This document shows, piece after piece, positions 6,013-23,990 of a stretch of DNA of 25,380 nucleotides. Made by a program: the position numbers and the translations under genes. The notes below the pieces were generated by a model. That model made no database searches. It saw nothing but the letters and a program-made list of their open reading frames with translations, and had not been told where the DNA came from. Origin of the DNA: a virus (taxonomy: Duplodnaviria > Caudoviricetes); the IMG/VR virus record IMGVR_UViG_3300023240_001054, positions 1 through 25,380 of that record; one strand, given 5' to 3'. Every line of letters begins with the position of its first letter. Positions within the stretch are counted from its first letter, which is position 1.

Positions 6013-6972
6013 TTAATTATATAAATCTGAGTATGAAATTCCTTTAGCTTTACGCTTTGACGCTTCTTGAACGTTTTGGTTTCGCAATGCTAATCCAGCA
6101 GCTTCTTGAGCTTGTGGAATACTCCCTAGCTGATAAGTTCCCGGTGTGTAATTTGTATCCGCCTGACCTGACTGTGCAAATCCTCCCTTGCCTGCCAGTG
6201 AAGCTGAATAGTTATTTAGAGAAGGTAGATTAAATCCTGCTGCTCCGTCTGTACCTAAGTTCTTTTCAAGGTTGCGAGAATAATCACCAAGACTATTTCC
6301 AGCAGCTGAAGACAACGAAGAAAGGTTTCTGTTCTGTTCAGCAAGTGCGTCCTGTTCTTGAGCGCCTCTTACACCGCTGAACGTTGTACCTGATCCTGCG
6401 TTTCGTTCTCTAGAGTTTTCTAAGTTACGCCCGAAGCTTGCTTCAGTGCTTGCAATACGTGAGTTATAATCATCGATAGTTAGGTTAGCATTTCTTAAAG
6501 TGTCTTCTTTTAATGCATCTATTTGTTGAGCGTACTCAGGAGCAACTGTTTCTTTTGCTTTATCAAGTATTTGAGCAATAACATCAGCTGTAAGATCCAT
6601 GTCTGGTTTAACAGCTAGGCCCTGATTTTGCAGTTGGTTTAAGTAAGGAACAATAGCATTGTTCATAAAGTTAGCATCCTCTTCATTTTGTGTTTGATAA
6701 GACTGACCATTAACAACTACTGTATTTCTACTAGGTTCTGGTGTGCGGTTTCGAGAAGGCTTGCGATCAGAATTAGAACCTCCTGAAAGCTTTCCTCGAG
6801 TTATTGGTCCCACAATACCATCAGCCGCAATGTTTTGCCTTGACTGATATGCTCTTACAGCAGCTTGAGTTTTTGGACCGAAGATTCCATCAACTTTTAC
6901 TCCAATTTTTCTTTGAAGTTCTTCTACTTGTTTTCCTCGAGAGCCTACTTTTAATTGTTGTGTTATCGCCAT
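6013..6972 (-). CDS. Peptidoglycan-binding (PG_binding_1-like) putative ejection/internal virion protein
   Basis: LKVGSRGKQVEELQRKIGVKVDGIFGPKTQAAVRAYQSRQNIAADGIVGPITRGKL is a typical three-helix PG-binding domain; the remainder is A/S/N/Q/G-rich and helical. Confidence 0.78.
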   Translation of the reverse strand: MAITQQLKVGSRGKQVEELQRKIGVKVDGIFGPKTQAAVRAYQSRQNIAADGIVGPITRGKLSGGSNSDRKPSRNRTPEPSRNTVVVNGQSYQTQNEEDANFMNNAIVPYLNQLQNQGLAVKPDMDLTADVIAQILDKAKETVAPEYAQQIDALKEDTLRNANLTIDDYNSRIASTEASFGRNLENSRERNAGSGTTFSGVRGAQEQDALAEQNRNLSSLSSAAGNSLGDYSRNLEKNLGTDGAAGFNLPSLNNYSASLAGKGGFAQSGQADTNYTPGTYQLGSIPQAQEAAGLALRNQNVQEASKRKAKGISYSDLYN

Positions 6973-6981
6973 ATTACTTAT

Positions 6982-6990
6982 ATTATACCA
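6982..6990 (-). promoter_or_regulatory. Extended -10 promoter TGGTATAAT, 9 nt before the ATG of the first ejection gene
   Basis: Plus strand attatacca at 6982-6990, in the short intergenic gap. Confidence 0.6.
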
Positions 6991-12518: not shown

Positions 12519-15125
12519 TTATGCTTCCTGTGAAATAGCTATTAAGTCCCATTTAGTATCTGCAACGTTGTATTTGAATCCAACATATAATGTTTTACTG
12601 ATAACAGTTGTAGTAGGAAGAACTTGACCTACAGCTCGGAAGATTGCGTTCCACGCTAACACTCTAGCTGTTCCATTGTCTTTAATTCTTATAATTAGTG
12701 TGTTTTTATCTGTCAGTGATATTACTGAGGTTGGTACTCCAATCGTATCTGCTACTGCAAGCGCTGTAACCGTGTGAGTATGTCTTGTTCCCGCAATAGC
12801 GACTACTGTTGCGGCGCTTGAAGCTTCTGTAGTTGATCCGTCCGTCGTTACGGTAATTCCTTCGATTGCAACCACTCCTGCAGCTGTACGTGAAAGCGTT
12901 GTATCTGTAGCCGCTCCAAGTTCGATAGTTGTAAATTGAGGTGCTGTAAGAGAAGAAAGGATAACAGTCCCTCCTACTGTCGGCATGTTTGTTGATTCAA
13001 TGTCTGTAGCCCATAGCTTTGTTACACGTGTACCAGTTACCCCAATAGAACCTGACATTGTAATATCATTAGTTCCAAGAGCTAAGTTTCCACCTGAGAC
13101 TGTAAATCCTCCTGTTGCAGTTTCTACTGTTATATTACCTGTACCATCAAATGATACACCTCCGATTGTTCTAGCATCTTCAAGTGCTGTAGCTGTAGCT
13201 GCGTTACCTGTAACAGAACCAGCTATTGCATTAGTTACCTGTAAATCTGTAAACCAACCTTTAGTTATTCGAGTTCCTGTTGAACCAATATCTCCAATTA
13301 ATTGTAAATTAGAACCATCATAAGTAAGTCCTGAAGTTCCTTCAATTGTTCCGTCTCCTGTCCACACACCTACTTGGTTGTCTACTGGTGTACCTACTTT
13401 AGAAACATCTCCAGATCCTGATGGAGTTGCAAAACTTGGAGCTGAAGATGCTCCGTTTGATTTTAAGAAAGTTCCATCTGAACCTAGAGCAAGTTCGGTA
13501 ACATCCCCGTCTGTATTTGAATAAAAGACTCTCCATGCTGTTTGATCAACAAAGTCTGTAAGGTCTGAGTAATTCTTTAAAGCGGTACCATTTACTGTTG
13601 GCATGTTTGTAACTTCCAAGTTTGTAAACCAACCTTTAGTTATCCGAGTTCCTGTTGAACCAATATCTCCAGTAAGTTGAAAATTAGAACCATCGTAAGT
13701 AAGGCCTATAGTTCCCTCAATCGTTCCATCACCAGTCCAGACTCCTATTTGGTCGTTTGCTGGAGTTCCAACTTTAGAAACGTCACCAGATCCTGATGGA
13801 GTTGCAAAACTTGGAGCTGAAGATGCTCCGTTTGATTTTAAGAAAGTTCCATCTGAACCTAGAGCAAGTTCGGTAACATCCCCGTCTGTATTTGAATAAA
13901 AGACTCTCCATGCTGTTTGATCAACAAAGTCTGTAAGGTCTGAGTAATTCTTTAAAGCAGTACCACCTACTGTTGGCATATTTGTAATTTCCAAGTCTGT
14001 AAACCAACCTTTTGTTACTTTACTTAAAGCGCTTCCAAGATCACCTGAAATTACCAAATTGTTTCCATCGTAAGTAAGTCCTGAAGTTCCTTCAAGTGTT
14101 CCATCTCCAGTCCAGACTCCTACTTGATTATCTACTGGCGTTCCGACTTTAGAAACGTCACCTGAACCAGCAGGTACAGCAAAGCTTGGAGCTGCAGAGG
14201 CTCCGTTTGATTTTAGGAAGGTTCCATCTGAACCTAGAGCAAGTTCGGTAACATCCCCGTCTGTATTAGAGTAAAAGACTCTCCATGCTGTTTGATCAAC
14301 AAAGTCTGTAAGGTCTGAGTAATTCTTTAAAGCAGTACCACCTACTGTTGGCATGTTAGTAATCTCTAAGTTAGTGAACCAACCTTTAGTTACTCTGTCT
14401 CCAGTAGTAGCAAGTGAGCCAGTCATAGTTACATCGTTTGATCCCACGTCAAGGTCTACACCTGTTAGAGTTACTGATGAATCGTCTATATTGAATATAG
14501 TTCCACTAGCTGACTCAACAGAGAGTCCTGCGGTTGACTCTATTTTTACTTTATAAGATGAACTATCTGCTTTGTTTCTAGTTGACAGTTCAATAAGTTG
14601 GTCGTCATCAGTAAATGAATTTTGGATAGCAATACCTGCTTGACCTTGGTCTTGATTGTCTGAAAAGTCCTGAGAACCAATTATCATAGCATCACCAGAA
14701 AAACCAATAGGTGATAGGTCTCCAAATAGAAATCCAGTTTGTATATCTGTGGTTGCTGTGTTTATGTAGAGTGTTGCATGTCCCTTAAGAGGAAAACCTA
14801 AACCTAAAAGGTCTGCACTTGTGTCTTCTAACACTACCCCACCTGTAAAGTTGGTTGAAATCTTAAGTTTAGAAGAACTCCTCACAAAGTCTGTACTCCC
14901 CGCAAGAGTCCCGTCTCCTGTCCAAACTGCGACCTGCTCGTTTACTGGAGTACCAACTTTAACAACATCACCAGTACCTGCTGCTGGTGTTGAGTTTTCA
15001 AATGTAGTAGGTCCTGTTTTGCGAATATACTCACCTGCAGGTGAAGTATTCAACGCAGTTAAGTTAGCTAACGCAGTTGCTTCTGAAGTTGTGTTTTGTT
15101 CTCCACGGACGGATAAATTACTCAT
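12519..15125 (-). CDS. Fibre protein (head or tail) with three 125-aa tandem repeats
   Basis: 868 aa, G/T/S/D-rich; fibre motifs GNAATATALEDARTIGGVSFDGTGNIT and LALGSDGTFLKSNG; C-terminal beta domain LIIRIKDNGTARVLAW...WDLIA. Confidence 0.85.
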   Translation of the reverse strand: MSNLSVRGEQNTTSEATALANLTALNTSPAGEYIRKTGPTTFENSTPAAGTGDVVKVGTPVNEQVAVWTGDGTLAGSTDFVRSSSKLKISTNFTGGVVLEDTSADLLGLGFPLKGHATLYINTATTDIQTGFLFGDLSPIGFSGDAMIIGSQDFSDNQDQGQAGIAIQNSFTDDDQLIELSTRNKADSSSYKVKIESTAGLSVESASGTIFNIDDSSVTLTGVDLDVGSNDVTMTGSLATTGDRVTKGWFTNLEITNMPTVGGTALKNYSDLTDFVDQTAWRVFYSNTDGDVTELALGSDGTFLKSNGASAAPSFAVPAGSGDVSKVGTPVDNQVGVWTGDGTLEGTSGLTYDGNNLVISGDLGSALSKVTKGWFTDLEITNMPTVGGTALKNYSDLTDFVDQTAWRVFYSNTDGDVTELALGSDGTFLKSNGASSAPSFATPSGSGDVSKVGTPANDQIGVWTGDGTIEGTIGLTYDGSNFQLTGDIGSTGTRITKGWFTNLEVTNMPTVNGTALKNYSDLTDFVDQTAWRVFYSNTDGDVTELALGSDGTFLKSNGASSAPSFATPSGSGDVSKVGTPVDNQVGVWTGDGTIEGTSGLTYDGSNLQLIGDIGSTGTRITKGWFTDLQVTNAIAGSVTGNAATATALEDARTIGGVSFDGTGNITVETATGGFTVSGGNLALGTNDITMSGSIGVTGTRVTKLWATDIESTNMPTVGGTVILSSLTAPQFTTIELGAATDTTLSRTAAGVVAIEGITVTTDGSTTEASSAATVVAIAGTRHTHTVTALAVADTIGVPTSVISLTDKNTLIIRIKDNGTARVLAWNAIFRAVGQVLPTTTVISKTLYVGFKYNVADTKWDLIAISQEA
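13230..14400. repeat. Tandem repeat, period 375 bp, ~3 copies, inside the fibre gene
   Basis: The anchor aaagtctgta ends at 13560, 13935 and 14310; 13411-13583 is identical to 13786-13958. Confidence 0.95.
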
Positions 15126-16482: not shown

Positions 16483-16821
16483 TTAATTTCCTATTTCACG
16501 GTATCTAATAAGGCCTCCGACTTGAACAGCTCCACCTAGATTTATTACAAACGCTGTGTTAGGGCTAAGAGTTATAACACCGTTTACGTCCTGACTAGCG
16601 TTTTCCCACGTTAGTGGTTGCTTTGCATCTAAGGGAAGAGGTCCACCATAGGCAGTCATTGCCCCGTCTTTTAATTGTACTTCGACAGCCGTTGTTGGCA
16701 TAAAAGAGATAAAGTCTATTGCTAGAAAGTTCCCTGGAGTAGTTGGCGCTGCAATAATAGCGTTGTCACCACTTGAAGAAATATCTATATCTGCTTTTCT
16801 TGAATTTTCTGCGTATGACAT
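16483..16821 (-). CDS. Small beta-sandwich virion protein (possible head-fibre base)
   Basis: 112 aa, alternating beta pattern, first gene after the major capsid protein. Confidence 0.5.
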   Translation of the reverse strand: MSYAENSRKADIDISSSGDNAIIAAPTTPGNFLAIDFISFMPTTAVEVQLKDGAMTAYGGPLPLDAKQPLTWENASQDVNGVITLSPNTAFVINLGGAVQVGGLIRYREIGN

Positions 16822-16840
16822 ATGTTTTTTATATTACCAA

Positions 16841-16902: not shown

Positions 16903-17892
16903 CTATGAAGACGTTGAGTTACTAAATACCCACATTCGAGCAAGGTCGTTGAATCCTAGATCAAACAAAGTTGTTGCTGATGTTTGGATTTCTTTTGTCT
17001 TGTAAACAACGTTTACAGGATCTACCATTGCTGCTTGTGATTCAATAAATTGGAATCCGAATTCATCGGCCATTAATGAACTGTCAAACATAGCCCAGTA
17101 ATTTGCGTTTGCAATAAATGGAAGTGCTACGATCTTGAAAGCATTTACAGCTGATCCATCGTATGTGTTAGATCCAGGTAGATTGTTTCCAGTAATAGCT
17201 TTAAGAATTTCCTTAGCTTTGAAGTGGTTAGCTGAGTTCTTCTTAACTACAAGCACATCCAAGTCTGGAATCATTGGGTTTCCTCGAGGGTCTACCATAA
17301 GTCCAGCTGTTCGGTATGCTGCTTTAACTCCAGCGTAATCAAATGGAAGGTTGTAGTCAGATCCATCGTAAACAATGTTGTTCATATCTGGCCCTCCGTC
17401 TTCACGTGTATGAGCGTTAGACGCTGCTGCAAGACCATCACCTCCGGCAATGTTCATTACCTTGTTACCTGATGCACCGTAAGCGGTGTATGAAGTAGCA
17501 TAAGCATTGTCGATTCGCTCTGCACATAGCTTTTCTTTTCGTTGTGCGATTGAATTCTTAAGTTGTCGAGCCGTATTTTCTAGGTCTCGCTTTCTAATAC
17601 CGAATTTCCACATTTGAAATGTAAAAGGAACGATAATTCCTACCATGTTTTGTGTATAAGTTTTCTTATACCCTTGCACTGGTGTATCTGCAAAGATAAT
17701 TCCGTTTTCGTCAACGAAATCAGCTTGAGTTAGACCTGATAGAGATGAATCTTTCTCGTAATAATCTTCAGTTGTTCGTACATTAAAGTACTGAGGGTAT
17801 AGCTTTTCTGGTTCTGCTTCTTTTGAGAAAACTTTTTGGATCGAAAGATCTACTAAGTCTGCTGCTTGGTTGATTGAAAGTGGTGCTGACAT
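16903..17892 (-). CDS. Major capsid protein (HK97 fold, Mu gpT-like)
   Basis: 329 aa after the scaffold and decoration genes; patterns YPQYFNVRTTEDYYEKDSSLSGL, GGDGLAAASNAHT, MVDPRGNPM, LFDLGFNDLAR. Confidence 0.85.
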   Translation of the reverse strand: MSAPLSINQAADLVDLSIQKVFSKEAEPEKLYPQYFNVRTTEDYYEKDSSLSGLTQADFVDENGIIFADTPVQGYKKTYTQNMVGIIVPFTFQMWKFGIRKRDLENTARQLKNSIAQRKEKLCAERIDNAYATSYTAYGASGNKVMNIAGGDGLAAASNAHTREDGGPDMNNIVYDGSDYNLPFDYAGVKAAYRTAGLMVDPRGNPMIPDLDVLVVKKNSANHFKAKEILKAITGNNLPGSNTYDGSAVNAFKIVALPFIANANYWAMFDSSLMADEFGFQFIESQAAMVDPVNVVYKTKEIQTSATTLFDLGFNDLARMWVFSNSTSS

Positions 17893-17896
17893 AATA

Positions 17897-18328
17897 TTAT
17901 GCGGTTACTGTTGCTACTCGAAGAATGTTTCCAACAATAACTTTGTCGGCAACAGCTCCAATAACACCTGTTTGTAAGAACACAGCTTCGTCAGTCGTGT
18001 TGTTAGAGTGAGTGTTATTTACTTCAGATTTGTTTGCAAGTAGCATTTTCTGATAATTATCTGCAAGTGTAGGTGTGTTAGAAGCTCCAACTGTCCATTC
18101 TTGAGATGCGTCTACGATACATACCAATATTTCAGTTGCGTTTGAGGCTACTGTTTCCATTGCTACGGCGAAAACGTTTGTTGATGTTGTTGCAGCGGTA
18201 GCTGGCACTACGTCAATAGCGTCTGCTGTTCGGTCTAACATCACAAGGTCTCCAAGTGTGTACGCTTGAGAATCTATACGTACTTTTTTGTATACAGTCT
18301 CATTTGACTCTTTAATAAGTTTAAACAT
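17897..18328 (-). CDS. Capsid decoration / cement-like protein
   Basis: Between scaffold and capsid; beta-rich AYTLGDLVML, VFAVAMET. Probable start ATG at 18328 (MFKLIK), which avoids overlap with the scaffold gene. Confidence 0.55.
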   Translation of the reverse strand: MFKLIKESNETVYKKVRIDSQAYTLGDLVMLDRTADAIDVVPATAATTSTNVFAVAMETVASNATEILVCIVDASQEWTVGASNTPTLADNYQKMLLANKSEVNNTHSNNTTDEAVFLQTGVIGAVADKVIVGNILRVATVTA

Positions 18329-18344: not shown

Positions 18345-19196
18345 TCAGCTAAATAATTCCTCTTTCTCTTCATCTGTAAACCCTTTCATCGCATCTATGC
18401 GTAGATCATGATTTACTGATTTTTTTACTTTAGGAGTTTTTTCAGCTGATGCTCCGGTGTGAGAAGCGACTTTTATCTTTTCACGTGAAGCATTAATTTT
18501 ATTAAGGTTTTTTTGTGGTTGAGTTCCAAAAATTTCTTTATGAACCTTGTTAAGTACTTTTTTCAAAGACTTGGGATCTGAAGGTGCAACATAGAGGTTA
18601 AACTCTGATTTAAACTGGTCCCATAGAACACCGTCTGAATCGTTTTCTGGAAGATACTCTGGATGTGCTTCAAGGAAAGAATCGAATTCGCTATTGTTTT
18701 TATCCGATGCAATTTCGTCTTTCTTTGCAAACCCCATCTTTGTAGCTATTTGCTCAAAACGCTTTAACTCATCTGGATCATATCCTGACAGCTCGTCGTC
18801 TGAATCATCTTTCTTTGATTTCTTACTTACAAACAATTCGTCTTGTCGTTCTTTTCGTAAGAGAGCTTTTAGCCTCGTAGTCTCTAGACGCAATGCGCGT
18901 TCTCTTGGTGTCTCACCTTCAACTGGTTTTGGTTCATCTTTTTTTGTCTCTTCCTCCTGATGATCTTCATCCTCTTCTGTAGAATCTTCGTCTTCATCTT
19001 CGGTGTCTTCTTCAGACTCCTCTGATTCGTCTTCATCTTCTTCATCTGGATTATCATCAGTATCGTTTTCTTGAGTAGAAGAATCCTCGTGAGTTTCGCT
19101 CTCATCTTCATCGACTAGCTCATCGTCCTTTGAAGGATCAATTTTTACTGTATCAACAAAGTCTTTTACTTCCTCGTTATTATTTTCTGTTTCCAT
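18345..19196 (-). CDS. Capsid scaffolding protein
   Basis: Very acidic disordered N-terminus, central helix ERALRLETTRLKALLRKER, terminal helix MKGFTDEEKEELFS; lies upstream of the capsid genes. Confidence 0.78.
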   Translation of the reverse strand: METENNNEEVKDFVDTVKIDPSKDDELVDEDESETHEDSSTQENDTDDNPDEEDEDESEESEEDTEDEDEDSTEEDEDHQEEETKKDEPKPVEGETPRERALRLETTRLKALLRKERQDELFVSKKSKKDDSDDELSGYDPDELKRFEQIATKMGFAKKDEIASDKNNSEFDSFLEAHPEYLPENDSDGVLWDQFKSEFNLYVAPSDPKSLKKVLNKVHKEIFGTQPQKNLNKINASREKIKVASHTGASAEKTPKVKKSVNHDLRIDAMKGFTDEEKEELFS

Positions 19197-19237
19197 AATT
19201 TTTTTACTCCCTTTTGTTACCCGCTGGAGAGAGCGGG
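19197..19237 (-). promoter_or_regulatory. Leader pseudoknot copy 1 (scaffold 5' UTR)
   Basis: CCCGC-UCUCUCCA-GCGGG-UAACAAAAG-GGAG-UAAAAAAAUU-AUG; loop CUCC is complementary to GGAG. Confidence 0.7.
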
Positions 19238-19241
19238 AATT

Positions 19242-19270
19242 AAAAACAGCCCTTTACTGGGAAGGGCTGT
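19242..19270 (-). terminator. Intrinsic terminator-like hairpin whose loop pairs with an upstream junction
   Basis: ACAGCCCUU-CCCAGUA-AAGGGCUGU followed by UUUUAAUU; perfect 9-bp stem, short U-tract. Confidence 0.55.
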
Positions 19271-19355
19271 GTAACTCTCACTATAGAGGTAAAACTGCGA
19301 CGTAAAACCTTTCAAGCAAGAGCTATACAGCTCTCCCCAGTAATCGCAGTTTAAC
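19242..19355 (-). ncRNA. Unrecognised structured RNA (multi-stem junction plus kissing pseudoknot)
   Basis: P1 AAACUGCGA/UCGCAGUUU (19352-19344 with 19300-19292); inner hairpin GAGAGCU-GUAU-AGCUCUU; junction UACUGGG (19342-19336) complementary to loop CCCAGUA (19261-19255). Confidence 0.65.
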
Positions 19356-19374
19356 TAATAAATTGACAAACTTT

Positions 19375-19635
19375 CTATTCTTTATCGTCTTCTATTTCTG
19401 ACTGAACATCTGCACTTTCGTCGTCCTCTCTTTCAGTGTCAACGTCAGCGTCAGATTTTTCAGGCACTTCTACTGTATCGTCTACAATATTAAGTGGTTC
19501 TTCTGTAGGTTCCGCAGGAATTACTTTTCCTGTTCCCTCGCAGTTGTTACAAGTTGTAACTGACCCTTGTCGTAAGATTGGAAAAGCTCCTGATCCTACA
19601 AGGCCTTCACCTGCGCATGTTTCGCAATTATTCAT
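19375..19635 (-). CDS. Small DnaJ-type zinc-finger protein with acidic tail
   Basis: Two CxxCxGxG motifs (CETCAGEG, CNNCEGTG), then a D/E-rich tail. Confidence 0.7.
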   Translation of the reverse strand: MNNCETCAGEGLVGSGAFPILRQGSVTTCNNCEGTGKVIPAEPTEEPLNIVDDTVEVPEKSDADVDTEREDDESADVQSEIEDDKE

Positions 19636-19972
19636 TGTTTATTTTTTTATTAATTTCCATTAATGGCGCATCAGCAAGTGACAACTGTTGAGCTTTATTT
19701 TTTTCTTTAAAATGCTTTGTAAAGAACGCAACTGATTTGTCTGAAAGTTCGATGTCTGTTTCAAATGGTGTGTCCCATTTGTATGAAGTAAGATTTCCGT
19801 CTTTATCTAAAACTTCAGCAAACTTACATTTCTTTTTATCTTCTTCACTAAGTGAAACCTGAGGAATATCCTTTAGTACTGCCTCCAGTGTTTCAACATC
19901 TCCTTTCACTTGATTGAAAACTCCTATCAGTTGGACTCGTTCTGCTATTCCTATTTTTATTGTTTTTGACAT
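19628..19972 (-). CDS. Hypothetical protein
   Basis: 114 aa, operon-coupled (8-nt overlap with the next gene), globular-looking composition. Confidence 0.7.
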   Translation of the reverse strand: MSKTIKIGIAERVQLIGVFNQVKGDVETLEAVLKDIPQVSLSEEDKKKCKFAEVLDKDGNLTSYKWDTPFETDIELSDKSVAFFTKHFKEKNKAQQLSLADAPLMEINKKINNE

Positions 19973-20000
19973 AATTTAAATTGATTAATTTGTTAAAGGT

Positions 20001-20546
20001 TTATCGAACTGGTCGATTAAGATTTTGTAAAACTAACTTAGCCCATTTTTCCACACCGTCTTCTCCTCTGAATTCTTCTCGCTCTAAGTTTACTGTTCGC
20101 CTATCTTCTTTCATTTCAGCTAAGTATTCTTTTGGAGCGTTAGAGAATTTTTCTGCTACAACTATTGTAAACAATAGTCCTCCTTCTTTTGGATACACTG
20201 TGTATGTTCGTGCTAGTCGCTCACCTAATACTTCTTTAGCTTTTGCGTTATATCGAGGATTAATTTCTGACATATCACTTGAAGCTTCGTCGATCTTTTT
20301 ATCTTCCTTAGCTGATGATACTGCATCTACCTCTGCGCTTTTAGGCTTATCTTTTATTAGGTCTACAATCTGTGCAAATGACTTATTCATTTCACCTTTC
20401 AAACTATCAAATTCTTCACGTGAAACAGATGGTACTTCAGATGGTTCATTTTCTTCAAATCCATCGTCTAAATCCATTGCTTCACTTACTACTGAATCTT
20501 CAATCTTTTCGTCTACTACCTTATCGTCTTTTTTCTTATTTGCCAT
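20001..20546 (-). CDS. Hypothetical protein with acidic scaffold-like N-terminus and globular C-terminus
   Basis: 181 aa; EVPSVSREEFDSLKGEM helix; shares a leader RNA motif with the scaffold gene. Confidence 0.7.
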   Translation of the reverse strand: MANKKKDDKVVDEKIEDSVVSEAMDLDDGFEENEPSEVPSVSREEFDSLKGEMNKSFAQIVDLIKDKPKSAEVDAVSSAKEDKKIDEASSDMSEINPRYNAKAKEVLGERLARTYTVYPKEGGLLFTIVVAEKFSNAPKEYLAEMKEDRRTVNLEREEFRGEDGVEKWAKLVLQNLNRPVR

Positions 20547-20588
20547 AATATTTTTTACTTCTTTATTTTACTTCCTGAAGAGGGGAAG
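20547..20588 (-). promoter_or_regulatory. Leader pseudoknot copy 2 (5' UTR of the 181-aa gene)
   Basis: CUUCC-CCUCUUCA-GGAAG-UAAAAUAAA-GAAG-UAAAAAAUAUU-AUG; loop CUUC is complementary to GAAG. Confidence 0.7.
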
Positions 20589-20606: not shown

Positions 20607-21164
20607 TTAATTTACCATTCCACCGTCAGACGTACCTCTTCGACCTCGTCTTTTTTCTTGTCGGTAGTTTTTTGAGGCTCCTCGAGCTGCTTTATTTGAA
20701 ATTCGGTTAGCCTTTCTTACTGTCTTGCGAGTTAGTGGTTCTTGCCCTCTTGGAGTTACGTACTGTACTGGATTTCTTCCTGTCTTAGCTTTGTATGCTG
20801 CTTCTCTTGCTATAGAAACCGATACCCTTCTTGTCGCTACCTGTCCTTTTGTTGACTTCCGAGCTTCGTTGTAAGCTTTATTTGCAGCTTCTTGAACTTT
20901 TTTAGAAGGCTTTTTTGCTTTTTTCTTTGCATCTTTTTTGTTTTTTTCTTCTCGGTCTATCTTTGCATTAATTACATTAGCTCTTACTCTAAACAAAGGA
21001 TCAGTATGATCATTCTTCACTGGTTCAGATCCTTTTGCTCCTCGGACCATCTTCATGTCTTCAACAAGCTTGCTATCACGTCTAATCATGTTCCGAGCTT
21101 TCCTACGAGCAGGGAATGACAACACGTCAGAAGTTTTATCAATTATTTTTTTTATTGCCTTCAT
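20607..21164 (-). CDS. Highly basic protein, possible nucleic-acid-binding internal protein
   Basis: 185 aa, roughly 30% K+R by hand count (KKDAKKKAKKPSKK, KRRGRRG). Confidence 0.6.
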   Translation of the reverse strand: MKAIKKIIDKTSDVLSFPARRKARNMIRRDSKLVEDMKMVRGAKGSEPVKNDHTDPLFRVRANVINAKIDREEKNKKDAKKKAKKPSKKVQEAANKAYNEARKSTKGQVATRRVSVSIAREAAYKAKTGRNPVQYVTPRGQEPLTRKTVRKANRISNKAARGASKNYRQEKRRGRRGTSDGGMVN

Positions 21165-21170
21165 ACTAGT

Positions 21171-21199
21171 ATTATATCATTTTTAATTATTCTGGTAAA
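21171..21199 (-). promoter_or_regulatory. sigma70 promoter TTTACC-N17-TATAAT with extended TG, leaderless spacing
   Basis: TGATATAAT at 21179-21171, ATG 6 nt later; TTTACC at 21199-21194. Confidence 0.65.
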
Positions 21200-21771: not shown

Positions 21772-23970
21772 TTATTTCTTATCAACGAATAATCCTCCTA
21801 ATAGATTTTTCCCAGTTGGTGCGCTAATTTGTTCACGTGGAACCACTGTAGGTGACAACTGTTTTGTGTTTCCAGTATTACCTTGCATTGTGTGGCCTTC
21901 TTTTGCTCCTGTTTGGTTAGTCGTGTCTTGAATTTCTGGTGCTGGTGTTTCTTGTTCCTGGTCAATAACTCTTGTGTCTTTCAAGAGAGCTTGTCCAACA
22001 TCTGTATTAGCATCTGCTTTAACACTTACACTTATTTTTGGTTGCTCAGGTGCTGGAGGTGCTGGAGGTGCGGGAGGTTGGAACCATGCGTCAGGTAGCC
22101 AATCTTTTGGATCCTCTTCATTTACTTTACATAATTGAATTGCTGACTTCATTACAAGTTCAGGTGGTTGCTGTAATAGTGGAATAAGCATGTTTGCCAT
22201 TTCCGTCTTCATTTGCTTCATAATAGTTTCAGACTTATCAAGGATTGATCGAGGGATAACTTTAAAGATTCCCTTCCAGTTAAGTTGATCAATAGAGATT
22301 CCTGATCCTATTTGGAAATATTTATTCTTATCAGACTCAAATAGTTTACCGTCTTCTTCGTCTAGCTTAAGTGAAAGCTCGGGTAGATACGTTGCTGTTA
22401 CACCTTCTTGCTCTCCTGTCTCTTCGTTGTTTTTAGAAAATAATTCATTACGTTCGATTTGATTTTCTTTTTCAAAAGCAATCATTTCAGATTCGTTACC
22501 GAACTCTTTTACTTCTGGAGTTGAGTAGATTTGTTTCATCCACGATAGTGTAACGTATGCGTCTTGTTCGATAGCCCATGCGATGTTATCTAATGGAACC
22601 TTTAGTCGTTTTAGTGAAGCCTCTCTAGCAAGCTGCACTTCACCAAGAGTCTTTCCTGTAATTTCACCTTCTAGTGTTGGTGAAATACCAGAGCTTCCGT
22701 CAATACGGCTCTGTCTATAATCTAATCCTTTCCAAGCTTCAGCTCCGGGACCAGGAATTTCCATCCAATCAAACTTACCATTTGTAATTTGTTGTGACTG
22801 CCCTGGAACGATTTTAATAACTCCATCTCCAAGTACTCCTGATGTACCTGTATGAAATCCGAACTTCATAATAGAAAGTACCAACTGGTCAGACGTCATA
22901 TTGTCCATTTTGTCGTACAATGCTTTATCTTGTTTAATGATCTTCCAGATTGAGATACCGTAAGGGCTATCTGAACTACGAAGAATCCATGGTGTGTGCC
23001 ATAGAGAAAGATATCCATCATCATTAGGAAGTGGGCATTTGTGTAGAACTATATCTCCTATAGGAACTACAATAACGTAAGTATCTTTAAGTCTATTTTC
23101 GTAGAATCCAATAGTTACAATGTCCGAACGTTCAGCTGAAACATCCCCGTCTTCTTTTTGCCCATTCTTTTCAAAGTCGTATGAGACCTTAGAGTTTCTT
23201 TTAATGTATTTAAAATTTTCGTATTGTCCAAACTCTACTTCAGCTTCGTCGTAAGAATAGTCCATCTCGTAGTAACAATCATTTGTTGAGTACGTGTTGT
23301 AAGGTTTTGTTTGTTCGTCTATCCATGTTTTGTATGGAGACATTCTTTCTTTAGCAACGTCGTTAAACCAAACAAGCTCCTTGGTTTCATAAACATTATT
23401 TTTTGGATCTGCAGAATCGTACTCAGTAAGTATGTCTTTTTTGTAAGCAATCTTCTTAGGAAACGATCTTCCAACTGCCCATCCGTATTTTAGTAGGTCA
23501 AAAATGAAAAGGCGTAGCACTTGCTTCGAGTCGGTAACAGCCCAGTTTCTTTTCCACAGTGCATAAGCAATTTGAGTATTAGCTTCATACTTTTTAGAAA
23601 GCTCAGTAAGCATTCCTTCTGGATCATTTTCAATCAATACAGAAAAAGCTGTTTGGATTTTAACCAACAGAGAAGGTGAAGAGTTATTACTCCTCCAGTT
23701 TTGTGTTTGATCTCCAATAGGAACCATTCGAGAACGTAGTCCTGTATCTTGGTCTTGTTCAAATCTTTTTTTAGTTGTACCTAGTTCTAATTCGTGAGGT
23801 ATGTATTCAGAATCAGCTTCTTTCCAGTCTTTTTCAACACCTAAGCTAGCACGATAAGCTTGCATAGCATCCTTTCGTTTTTTAACAAAGGACTGCAGCT
23901 TTTTCTCATCCTTATCAGGATTATATATTTTAACTTTTTCTTCTGGTTCTAGATCTTTTGTTTTTTTCAT
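21772..23970 (-). CDS. Portal protein (P22-like, long)
   Basis: 732 aa directly after the terminase; motifs DLLKYGWAVG, SPYGISIW, SSGISPTLEG, KTLGEVQL. Confidence 0.85.
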   Translation of the reverse strand: MKKTKDLEPEEKVKIYNPDKDEKKLQSFVKKRKDAMQAYRASLGVEKDWKEADSEYIPHELELGTTKKRFEQDQDTGLRSRMVPIGDQTQNWRSNNSSPSLLVKIQTAFSVLIENDPEGMLTELSKKYEANTQIAYALWKRNWAVTDSKQVLRLFIFDLLKYGWAVGRSFPKKIAYKKDILTEYDSADPKNNVYETKELVWFNDVAKERMSPYKTWIDEQTKPYNTYSTNDCYYEMDYSYDEAEVEFGQYENFKYIKRNSKVSYDFEKNGQKEDGDVSAERSDIVTIGFYENRLKDTYVIVVPIGDIVLHKCPLPNDDGYLSLWHTPWILRSSDSPYGISIWKIIKQDKALYDKMDNMTSDQLVLSIMKFGFHTGTSGVLGDGVIKIVPGQSQQITNGKFDWMEIPGPGAEAWKGLDYRQSRIDGSSGISPTLEGEITGKTLGEVQLAREASLKRLKVPLDNIAWAIEQDAYVTLSWMKQIYSTPEVKEFGNESEMIAFEKENQIERNELFSKNNEETGEQEGVTATYLPELSLKLDEEDGKLFESDKNKYFQIGSGISIDQLNWKGIFKVIPRSILDKSETIMKQMKTEMANMLIPLLQQPPELVMKSAIQLCKVNEEDPKDWLPDAWFQPPAPPAPPAPEQPKISVSVKADANTDVGQALLKDTRVIDQEQETPAPEIQDTTNQTGAKEGHTMQGNTGNTKQLSPTVVPREQISAPTGKNLLGGLFVDKK

Positions 23971-23981
23971 ATATGATTAAT

Positions 23982-23990
23982 ATTATACCA
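23982..23990 (-). promoter_or_regulatory. Extended -10 promoter TGGTATAAT overlapping the terminase stop, 11 nt before the portal ATG
   Basis: Plus strand attatacca at 23982-23990; a second TATAAT lies at 24000-23995. Confidence 0.5.

Follow-up and report, generated by a model that had tools for sequence, protein, structure and literature searches.

The window analysed here, a stretch of 25,380 nucleotides, comes from an uncultured tailed phage and covers its region of head and tail-structure genes, all of which lie on the minus strand. The gene set includes those for a terminase, a portal protein, small proteins, a 181-aa protein, a 114-aa protein, a zinc-finger protein, a 283-aa putative scaffold protein, a cement-like protein and the major capsid protein. 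Two copies of a small H-type pseudoknot were identified, one directly before the putative scaffold gene and one before the gene for the 181-aa protein (Table 1). Elsewhere in the window, an 868-aa protein (12519-15125) contains three near-identical internal repeats.

Table 1. Features of the head-gene region, in window coordinates
Feature	Position	Strand	Remarks
Downstream cassette: 143-aa cement-like and 329-aa major capsid genes	16903..18328	-	
283-aa putative scaffold gene	18345..19196	-	Disordered acidic N-terminus, helical C-terminus, gene position
U-A-rich tail, copy 1 to scaffold AUG	19197..19206	-	10 nt
Pseudoknot copy 1	19207..19237	-	Sequence, coordinates, covariation
Terminator-like hairpin and U5 tract	19242..19270	-	Formed from the rod 3' arm; ends 4 nt before copy 1
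Rod, about 40 pairs	19254..19343	-	Predicted antiterminator; possible RNase III-type substrate
Strand a*	19292..19300	-	In rod apex
Strand a	19344..19352	-	Predicted anti-antiterminator; pairs with a*
BoxA-like site	19359..19370	-	Just after upstream stop codon; deviant in this copy; conserved block in relatives
86-aa CXXCXGXG zinc-finger gene	19375..19635	-	Stop codon opens the scaffold leader; missing here in several relatives
114-aa gene	19628..19972	-	Homologue in G009 carries a third pseudoknot
181-aa protein gene	20001..20546	-	Helix 43-65 and alpha-beta-beta-(alpha)-beta-alpha domain
Tail, copy 2 to 181-aa AUG	20547..20557	-	11 nt
Pseudoknot copy 2	20558..20588	-	Sequence, coordinates, covariation

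The assignment of the 283-aa protein as a putative scaffold is based on its gene position, its disorder and helix features, and a neighbour in the Atlas that carries the name capsid assembly protein (score 0.93); fold and profile searches revealed no significant family. In the downstream cassette, the cement-like protein gave a Pfam match to PF09956 (E 0.003, below the cut-off) and the major capsid protein to PF25209 (E 1e-9). In some relatives the major capsid gene is interrupted by a small-ORF insert (L024-L032, L258:4338-5520 and L257:4152-5731), which is suggestive of a self-splicing intron with a homing nuclease.

The original prediction had paired the 283-aa and 181-aa products as two acidic scaffold-like proteins, a description that does not fit the latter. 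The 181-aa protein has a confidently predicted, folded alpha/beta C-terminal domain, which fold and profile searches assigned to no significant family. The best structural match (5zep_x, an HPF-type chain by its entry title) had a Z of 5.6 and an rmsd of 3.5 over 71 aligned residues, and likeness to the HPF and dsRBD folds is weak (Z at most 5.6; Foldseek E above 0.03). The protein is also predicted to self-associate: an arm-swapped homodimer model of residues 38-181 scored 0.61 against 0.00 for the best control, the mark applied being reached by 20 of 30 solved pairs and by one of 23 single chains. The runs agreed in at least 93% of contacts, with pLDDT of at least 83. In this model, the invariant residues S135, N136, D148, R150 and N175 grip residues 84-91 of the partner copy, and the conserved face looks like a peptide groove, not an RNA site. 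Since the invariant residues lie in a predicted protein-protein groove, the 181-aa protein becomes weaker as an RNA binder. Judging from these models, it is neither scaffold-like nor a strong candidate for binding the pseudoknot.

Inspection of the sequence located both pseudoknot copies on the minus strand, at the positions and with the build originally proposed. Copy 1 consists of a 5-bp stem 1 (19237-19233/19224-19220), a 3-nt loop 1, a 4-bp stem 2 (19229-19226/19210-19207), a 1-nt loop 2 and a 9-nt A-rich loop 3, and is followed by the AUG at 19196. The corresponding elements of copy 2 are 20588-20584/20575-20571 (stem 1), 20580-20577/20561-20558 (stem 2) and the AUG at 20546. Between the two copies, stem 1 shows three double changes and stem 2 one, just as initially described. 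Taken alone, the single hairpins are unremarkable (z -1.6 and -1.2). The pairing descriptor found three matches in the window, namely the two before the AUG codons and one intragenic, compared with 0.13 matches per shuffled window in 30 shuffles and 0.035 in 200 shuffles, none of the latter before an ORF. The proposed novelty check against Rfam 15 gave no match to the pseudoknot in the window (one unrelated match elsewhere had E 1.8), and no match was obtained in six related loci.

Related viral and metagenomic loci were gathered by capsid-protein, 181-aa-protein and two DNA-pattern searches. Among 41 descriptor-picked copies, 93.8% of stem cells pair and 82 cells are changed on both sides; none of 500 shuffles matched that pairing, and slid registers dropped to 36-49%. 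An alignment of 43 distinct rows found with a model that did not include stem 2 showed pairing of stem 2 in 99.4% of cells, three chance matches being among these rows. The pattern matches L038, L041 and L045 were rejected as chance. Covariation also recurs inside supported clades of the scaffold tree, where a clade of 6 rows has four variants of stem 2 and a clade of 8 rows has five; the analysis used a wrongly picked stem 2 for L032. As the changes recur within well-supported clades, they do not represent a single inherited event. To judge from these comparisons, related phages keep a genuine H-type pseudoknot of about 31 nt in which both stems covary. The covariation between loop and downstream block, read in the original prediction from two copies as a sign of conserved structure, is thus borne out in homologous leaders (41 and 43 rows).

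The helices are set in a near-invariant frame, U-C...G-U-A-A-A-A: the first base of each is C, preceded by U, and the last is G, with U and then several A residues behind it. The paired positions themselves vary. The inner pair, which corresponds to the preQ1-I pocket floor, is C-G in 14 cases, G-C in 12, U-A in three, A-U in one and another combination in nine; 43 of 52 copies have one or two G-C pairs among the four pairs of stem 2; and loop 2 is A in 17 of the 52, G in 12 and a lone C in two. In small H-type knots, A-rich loops pack on the minor groove (PMC11625349). By analogy, loop 3 would pack in the minor groove of stem 1 (A-minor packing), and the tail might pack likewise on stem 2.

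The pseudoknot is confined to a few genes. In the first 32 loci and the window, the descriptor gave 42 matches, 39 of them directly before the AUG of a scaffold or 181-family gene; the other three represent one intragenic site met three times. Because the descriptor itself selects for pairing, the count was repeated with genes chosen by protein HMM, taking one gene per distinct C-terminus and dropping ORFs that start less than 80 nt from the locus end or lack an early ATG. Under a relaxed test, 34 of 35 scaffold leaders and 21 of 27 181-family leaders passed, and the pseudoknot model recovered one more of each (35/35 and 22/27). Among 235 ORF starts in five genome sets, the ten that passed all belonged to scaffold or 181-family genes, leaving none of the 225 other starts. 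In ten phage records, nine of them at least 90% complete, one to three strong copies were counted per record and every copy lay in the head module, a distribution more in keeping with a specific regulon than with a general signal. A third copy was found in G009 before a gene unrelated to the other two, a member of the 114-aa family. The two-gene regulon of the original prediction therefore stands as regards restriction to scaffold and 181-family genes, and needs amending for the third gene in G009 and for the 181-family genes (5/27) that have no knot. The scaffold's own leader is never without it. The knot is absent before the cement-like and major capsid genes. We saw no concerted evolution of the two copies within one phage: in a permutation test on 20 pairs, with windows that were fixed and rough, copies from the same phage resembled each other no more than copies from different phages did (p 0.35).

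Shine-Dalgarno (SD)-like words precede 8 of 111 phage ORFs, an approximate figure as first-ATG starts were used. In stem 2, the 3' strand occupies the place of an SD and is SD-like in 6 of 52 copies. Given SD-poor phages and a last strand that is no SD site, the knot is no SD-hiding riboswitch, and an SD-sequestering switch was rejected on these counts. A small-molecule riboswitch related to preQ1-I is very improbable as well, in line with the original judgement, which recognised no known riboswitch. The resemblance to preQ1-I (RF00522; PMC11625349) concerns size and topology: an H-type fold of about 31-33 nt, a 5-bp first stem, a pyrimidine-rich loop and a U-then-A-rich loop 3. Unlike preQ1-I, the motif lacks the specificity C (UC or AC directly before the P1 3' strand), a fixed G-C pair as pocket floor, the conserved junction bases and neighbouring queuosine genes, while having a fully Watson-Crick covarying second stem and a second U-A-A-A-A module after stem 2. 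As the junction bases vary, there is no ligand pocket of the preQ1-I type. Also, there is no SD to hide and no Rfam match, and the downstream genes are not metabolic.

Small viral frameshift knots share a similar architecture, and G-T-A-A-A-A is present twice, so that a recoding signal (-1 frameshift or read-through) or a direct-repeat protein site at the DNA level was considered. Either is equally hard to credit. The element is intergenic, a slippery heptamer lies in range in 5 of 53 leaders, and a stop in the AUG frame falls within the element in 41 of 53; frameshifting was excluded on these grounds. Against a DNA-level site, covariation needs a single strand.

The knot ends 7-11 nt before the AUG in 27 of 29 scaffold leaders. 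Tails in 181-family homologues range from 6 to 21 nt and measure 14-21 nt in 8 of 23. In all five 181-family genes without a knot, a -10-like hexamer lies 7-13 nt upstream of the AUG, and before 181- and 114-family genes the knot, a leaderless start and coupling substitute for one another. Such behaviour would be expected of a start-site enhancer, in which the knot would dock on the 30S platform with stem 2 in the place of the SD:anti-SD duplex and promote fresh initiation at the first gene of each coupled cassette. The tight scaffold spacing and the position of the stem 2 3' strand also speak for this possible, though rather unlikely, alternative. Yet neither the major capsid gene nor any of the 225 other starts, many of them uncoupled, is preceded by the knot; it was not found in the bacterial genomes covered by the limited searches described below; and structure near SD-less AUG codons generally hinders initiation (PMC3121790).

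Several further words were observed near starts. The 60 nt upstream of knot-less 181-family genes contain TTATCC(A/C)CA, which we take to be DnaA-box-like, together with a -10 hexamer just before the AUG (L009:2876, L014:158, L215:1873 and L203:2941). In the window, extended -10-like hexamers lie 8-12 nt before several starts (21164-21180, 23970-23990, 6972-6990 and 16821-16840), and their sequences suggest leaderless or very short-leader mRNAs. The word A-A-A-G-G-T-C-G occurs 3-25 nt before many 181-family pseudoknots, before other phage genes and after the capsid gene (L010:1160, L015/L304:7305, L016:3510, L018:2791, L019:3212, L023:836, L032:3348 and L306:11752). Neither this word nor AAAGGTCG was enriched in five genomes of the Patescibacteria phylum.

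The survey beyond the phage family was negative within its scope. A GTDB pattern scan, restricted to the CUUY:RAAG class in one geometry and thus to an estimated third of members, gave 34 matches, none with both stem 1 and a start codon. A model search of 151 Patescibacteria-phylum genomes, scoring 41 of about 200-1,700 candidates per genome, returned three weak matches and no true copy. Of 401 genomes of this phylum, one encoded a capsid homologue (27%), on a different phage-like contig (L276; G325:C64) that also has scaffold- and terminase-like genes and no pseudoknot. Our guess is that the host belongs to the Patescibacteria, the phylum of G011. There was no match among GenBank phages, and the literature search found no description of the motif. 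Its words are absent from the searchable supplements of PMC10690425, whose 10,006 candidate alignments lay outside this search and may contain it. In our view the pseudoknot is a genuine and new RNA motif whose functional kind is known, and the attenuator-like leader to which it is joined has not been reported.

This leader fills the gap before the scaffold gene, where the original prediction rightly placed the knot and missed the rest. The whole 178 nt form one element: boxA-like site, strand a, rod, terminator hairpin and knot. In 19 of 30 leaders, the pairing of strand a with the a* of the same leader reaches -10 kcal/mol or better, which 9.4% of cross pairings do. In these 19 leaders, picked for having the helix, 35 cells of a:a* are changed on both sides (0/500 shuffles); the register was chosen from a slide table, and a register two columns off is 39% paired. 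The hairpin with its U tract is present in 17 of the 19 leaders with a:a* and in none of the 11 without, which comprise one clade of seven and four scattered lineages. In the clade that has lost the 181-family knot, stem 1 of the scaffold knot contains a U-U mismatch, and neither a:a* nor the U tract is present (L009:4421-4465, L203:4471-4515, L215:3403-3447 and L245:1257-1301).

Transcription attenuators are built of three mutually exclusive helices, the terminator, antiterminator and anti-antiterminator, with a hairpin and U tract. For the window copy, mutually exclusive antiterminator and anti-antiterminator states were predicted at -50.4 and -41.1 kcal/mol. Folding of successive prefixes gave a:a* as the best structure at 82 to 106 nt and the rod from 112 nt, ahead of the completion of the terminator at about 129 nt; blocking the first 32 nt gave the rod and no a:a*. 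In these predictions the three helices follow attenuator logic, a:a* plus terminator versus rod, and in most family members the scaffold knot is preceded by a predicted two-state transcription switch. Termination would then depend on an effector. The zinc-finger gene does not lie upstream of the leader in every relative, so its product is not the necessary trigger. In this arrangement, ending in a hairpin and U tract with a boxA-like site on the 5' side, the leader resembles known attenuators. Unlike known attenuators, it uses an unusually long rod as antiterminator and runs straight into a pseudoknot, and no aptamer, leader peptide or antisense RNA was identified in it. The boxA-like site, which would be a Nus site, is no perfect match to the gammaproteobacterial consensus of PMC5725501. 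It is close to sites in Patescibacteria 16S leaders, a comparison in which the scoring seed was drawn from both sets and only the fixed position therefore counts as independent. A second boxA-like word occurs at 19987-19997, between the 181-aa and 114-aa genes.

In 29 of 30 leaders the scaffold copy has a rod of 21-43 pairs ahead of it, and this holds also where a:a* and the terminator have been lost. This constancy would fit a role of the knot as a 5'-end shield that keeps exonucleases from degrading the message from its 5' end once the rod has been cut or, for 181-family transcripts, from close to their start site, several 181-family copies lying about 20 nt after a -10-like hexamer. Such a role leaves the tight distance to the AUG unexplained, and we consider it improbable.

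Taking the evidence together, we tentatively favour, at somewhat less than even confidence, a translational operator that a head protein of the phage, probably the scaffold, keeps closed. The knot would be marginally stable alone, and a head-module protein, most likely free scaffold, would bind it and hold it folded, thereby blocking ribosome loading near the SD-less AUG. A second stem of four pairs suits such a protein-held switch. SD-less initiation requires a local lack of structure (PMC3121790), and a fold so close to the AUG should therefore be inhibitory. The upstream predicted attenuator would first decide on transcription of the scaffold-cement-capsid message, its trigger perhaps being a factor that sits at the boxA-like site and covers strand a. 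Folding in vivo, repression and the identity of the binder are inferred. The shared translational element of the original prediction is thus retained as the best reading, an operator being somewhat more probable than an SD-independent enhancer and its binder putative.

Several observations count against the operator. In all five knot-less 181-family genes the knot is exchanged for a leaderless start, as an initiation signal would be; the scaffold spacing resembles that of an SD; and the longer 181-family tails may place the knot outside the ribosome footprint. If translation of the cement and capsid genes is coupled to that of the scaffold gene (gaps are mostly below 40 nt), repression by free scaffold would also cut capsid synthesis. 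The lack of any extra similarity between the two copies of one phage and the groove position of the invariant 181-aa residues point the same way. A protein-free rheostat, by which the knot alone would dampen translation of the scaffold and 181-aa proteins to a fixed ratio against the capsid protein, is a doubtful alternative: tertiary contacts alone, such as the packing of A-rich loops on the minor groove (PMC11625349), could account for the invariant U and A runs, but a plain hairpin would suffice. One elaborate fold has been kept across knot-bearing relatives whose capsid proteins are 51-82% identical, which suggests recognition and argues against a rheostat.

The proposed operator has parallels of different depth. 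In phage P22, the scaffold protein reportedly autoregulates its synthesis post-transcriptionally (Wyckoff and Casjens 1985); the same kind of control is proposed here, with no sequence or structural link and, unlike in P22, with a second and a third gene sharing the site. GP20 is a scaffold family. The GP20-a (RF02991) and GP20-b (RF03003) motifs and six further candidates precede GP20 genes (PMC10690425) and, like the present motif, are structured RNAs that lie no more than 25 nt from a head-module gene of a phage. Unlike those two, which measure 107 and 72 nt, our motif has no Rfam match and its gene no GP20 Pfam match. The T4/RB69 gene 32 operator, a phage leader pseudoknot with UAAA-type repeats before the start, offers a model for protein-dependent repression (PMC535899). 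There, the knot is followed by more than 40 unstructured nt with an SD and controls an ssDNA-binding protein, whereas here it ends 6-21 nt from an SD-less AUG and serves two or three head genes, not ssb. In the Escherichia coli rpsO operator, a pseudoknot is bound by the translation-repressing protein S15 (PMC3985624), as proposed here for a phage protein; it differs in size and sequence, in controlling a host gene with an SD, and in its known rRNA mimicry.

A bolder combination of both elements is a two-tier switch of head genes for an SD-less host, in which a three-helix attenuator gated by a Nus boxA would be followed by a miniature knot whose stem 2 takes the place of the SD:anti-SD duplex on the 30S platform, that is, a bacterial, phage-specific internal ribosome entry element of about 40 nt. 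We think this improbable too.

The motif is compact, strongly covarying and absent from Rfam, and dozens of natural variants are ready for probing. Since it occupies the usual SD place in SD-less phages, it permits a direct test of how structure at a start codon is read. An operator would provide a defined RNA site for scaffold feedback; an enhancer would represent a structured entry signal of minimal size in bacteria. If it acts as such, the coupled attenuator would allow the late head genes to be timed with no obvious sigma factor or Q protein of the phage involved.
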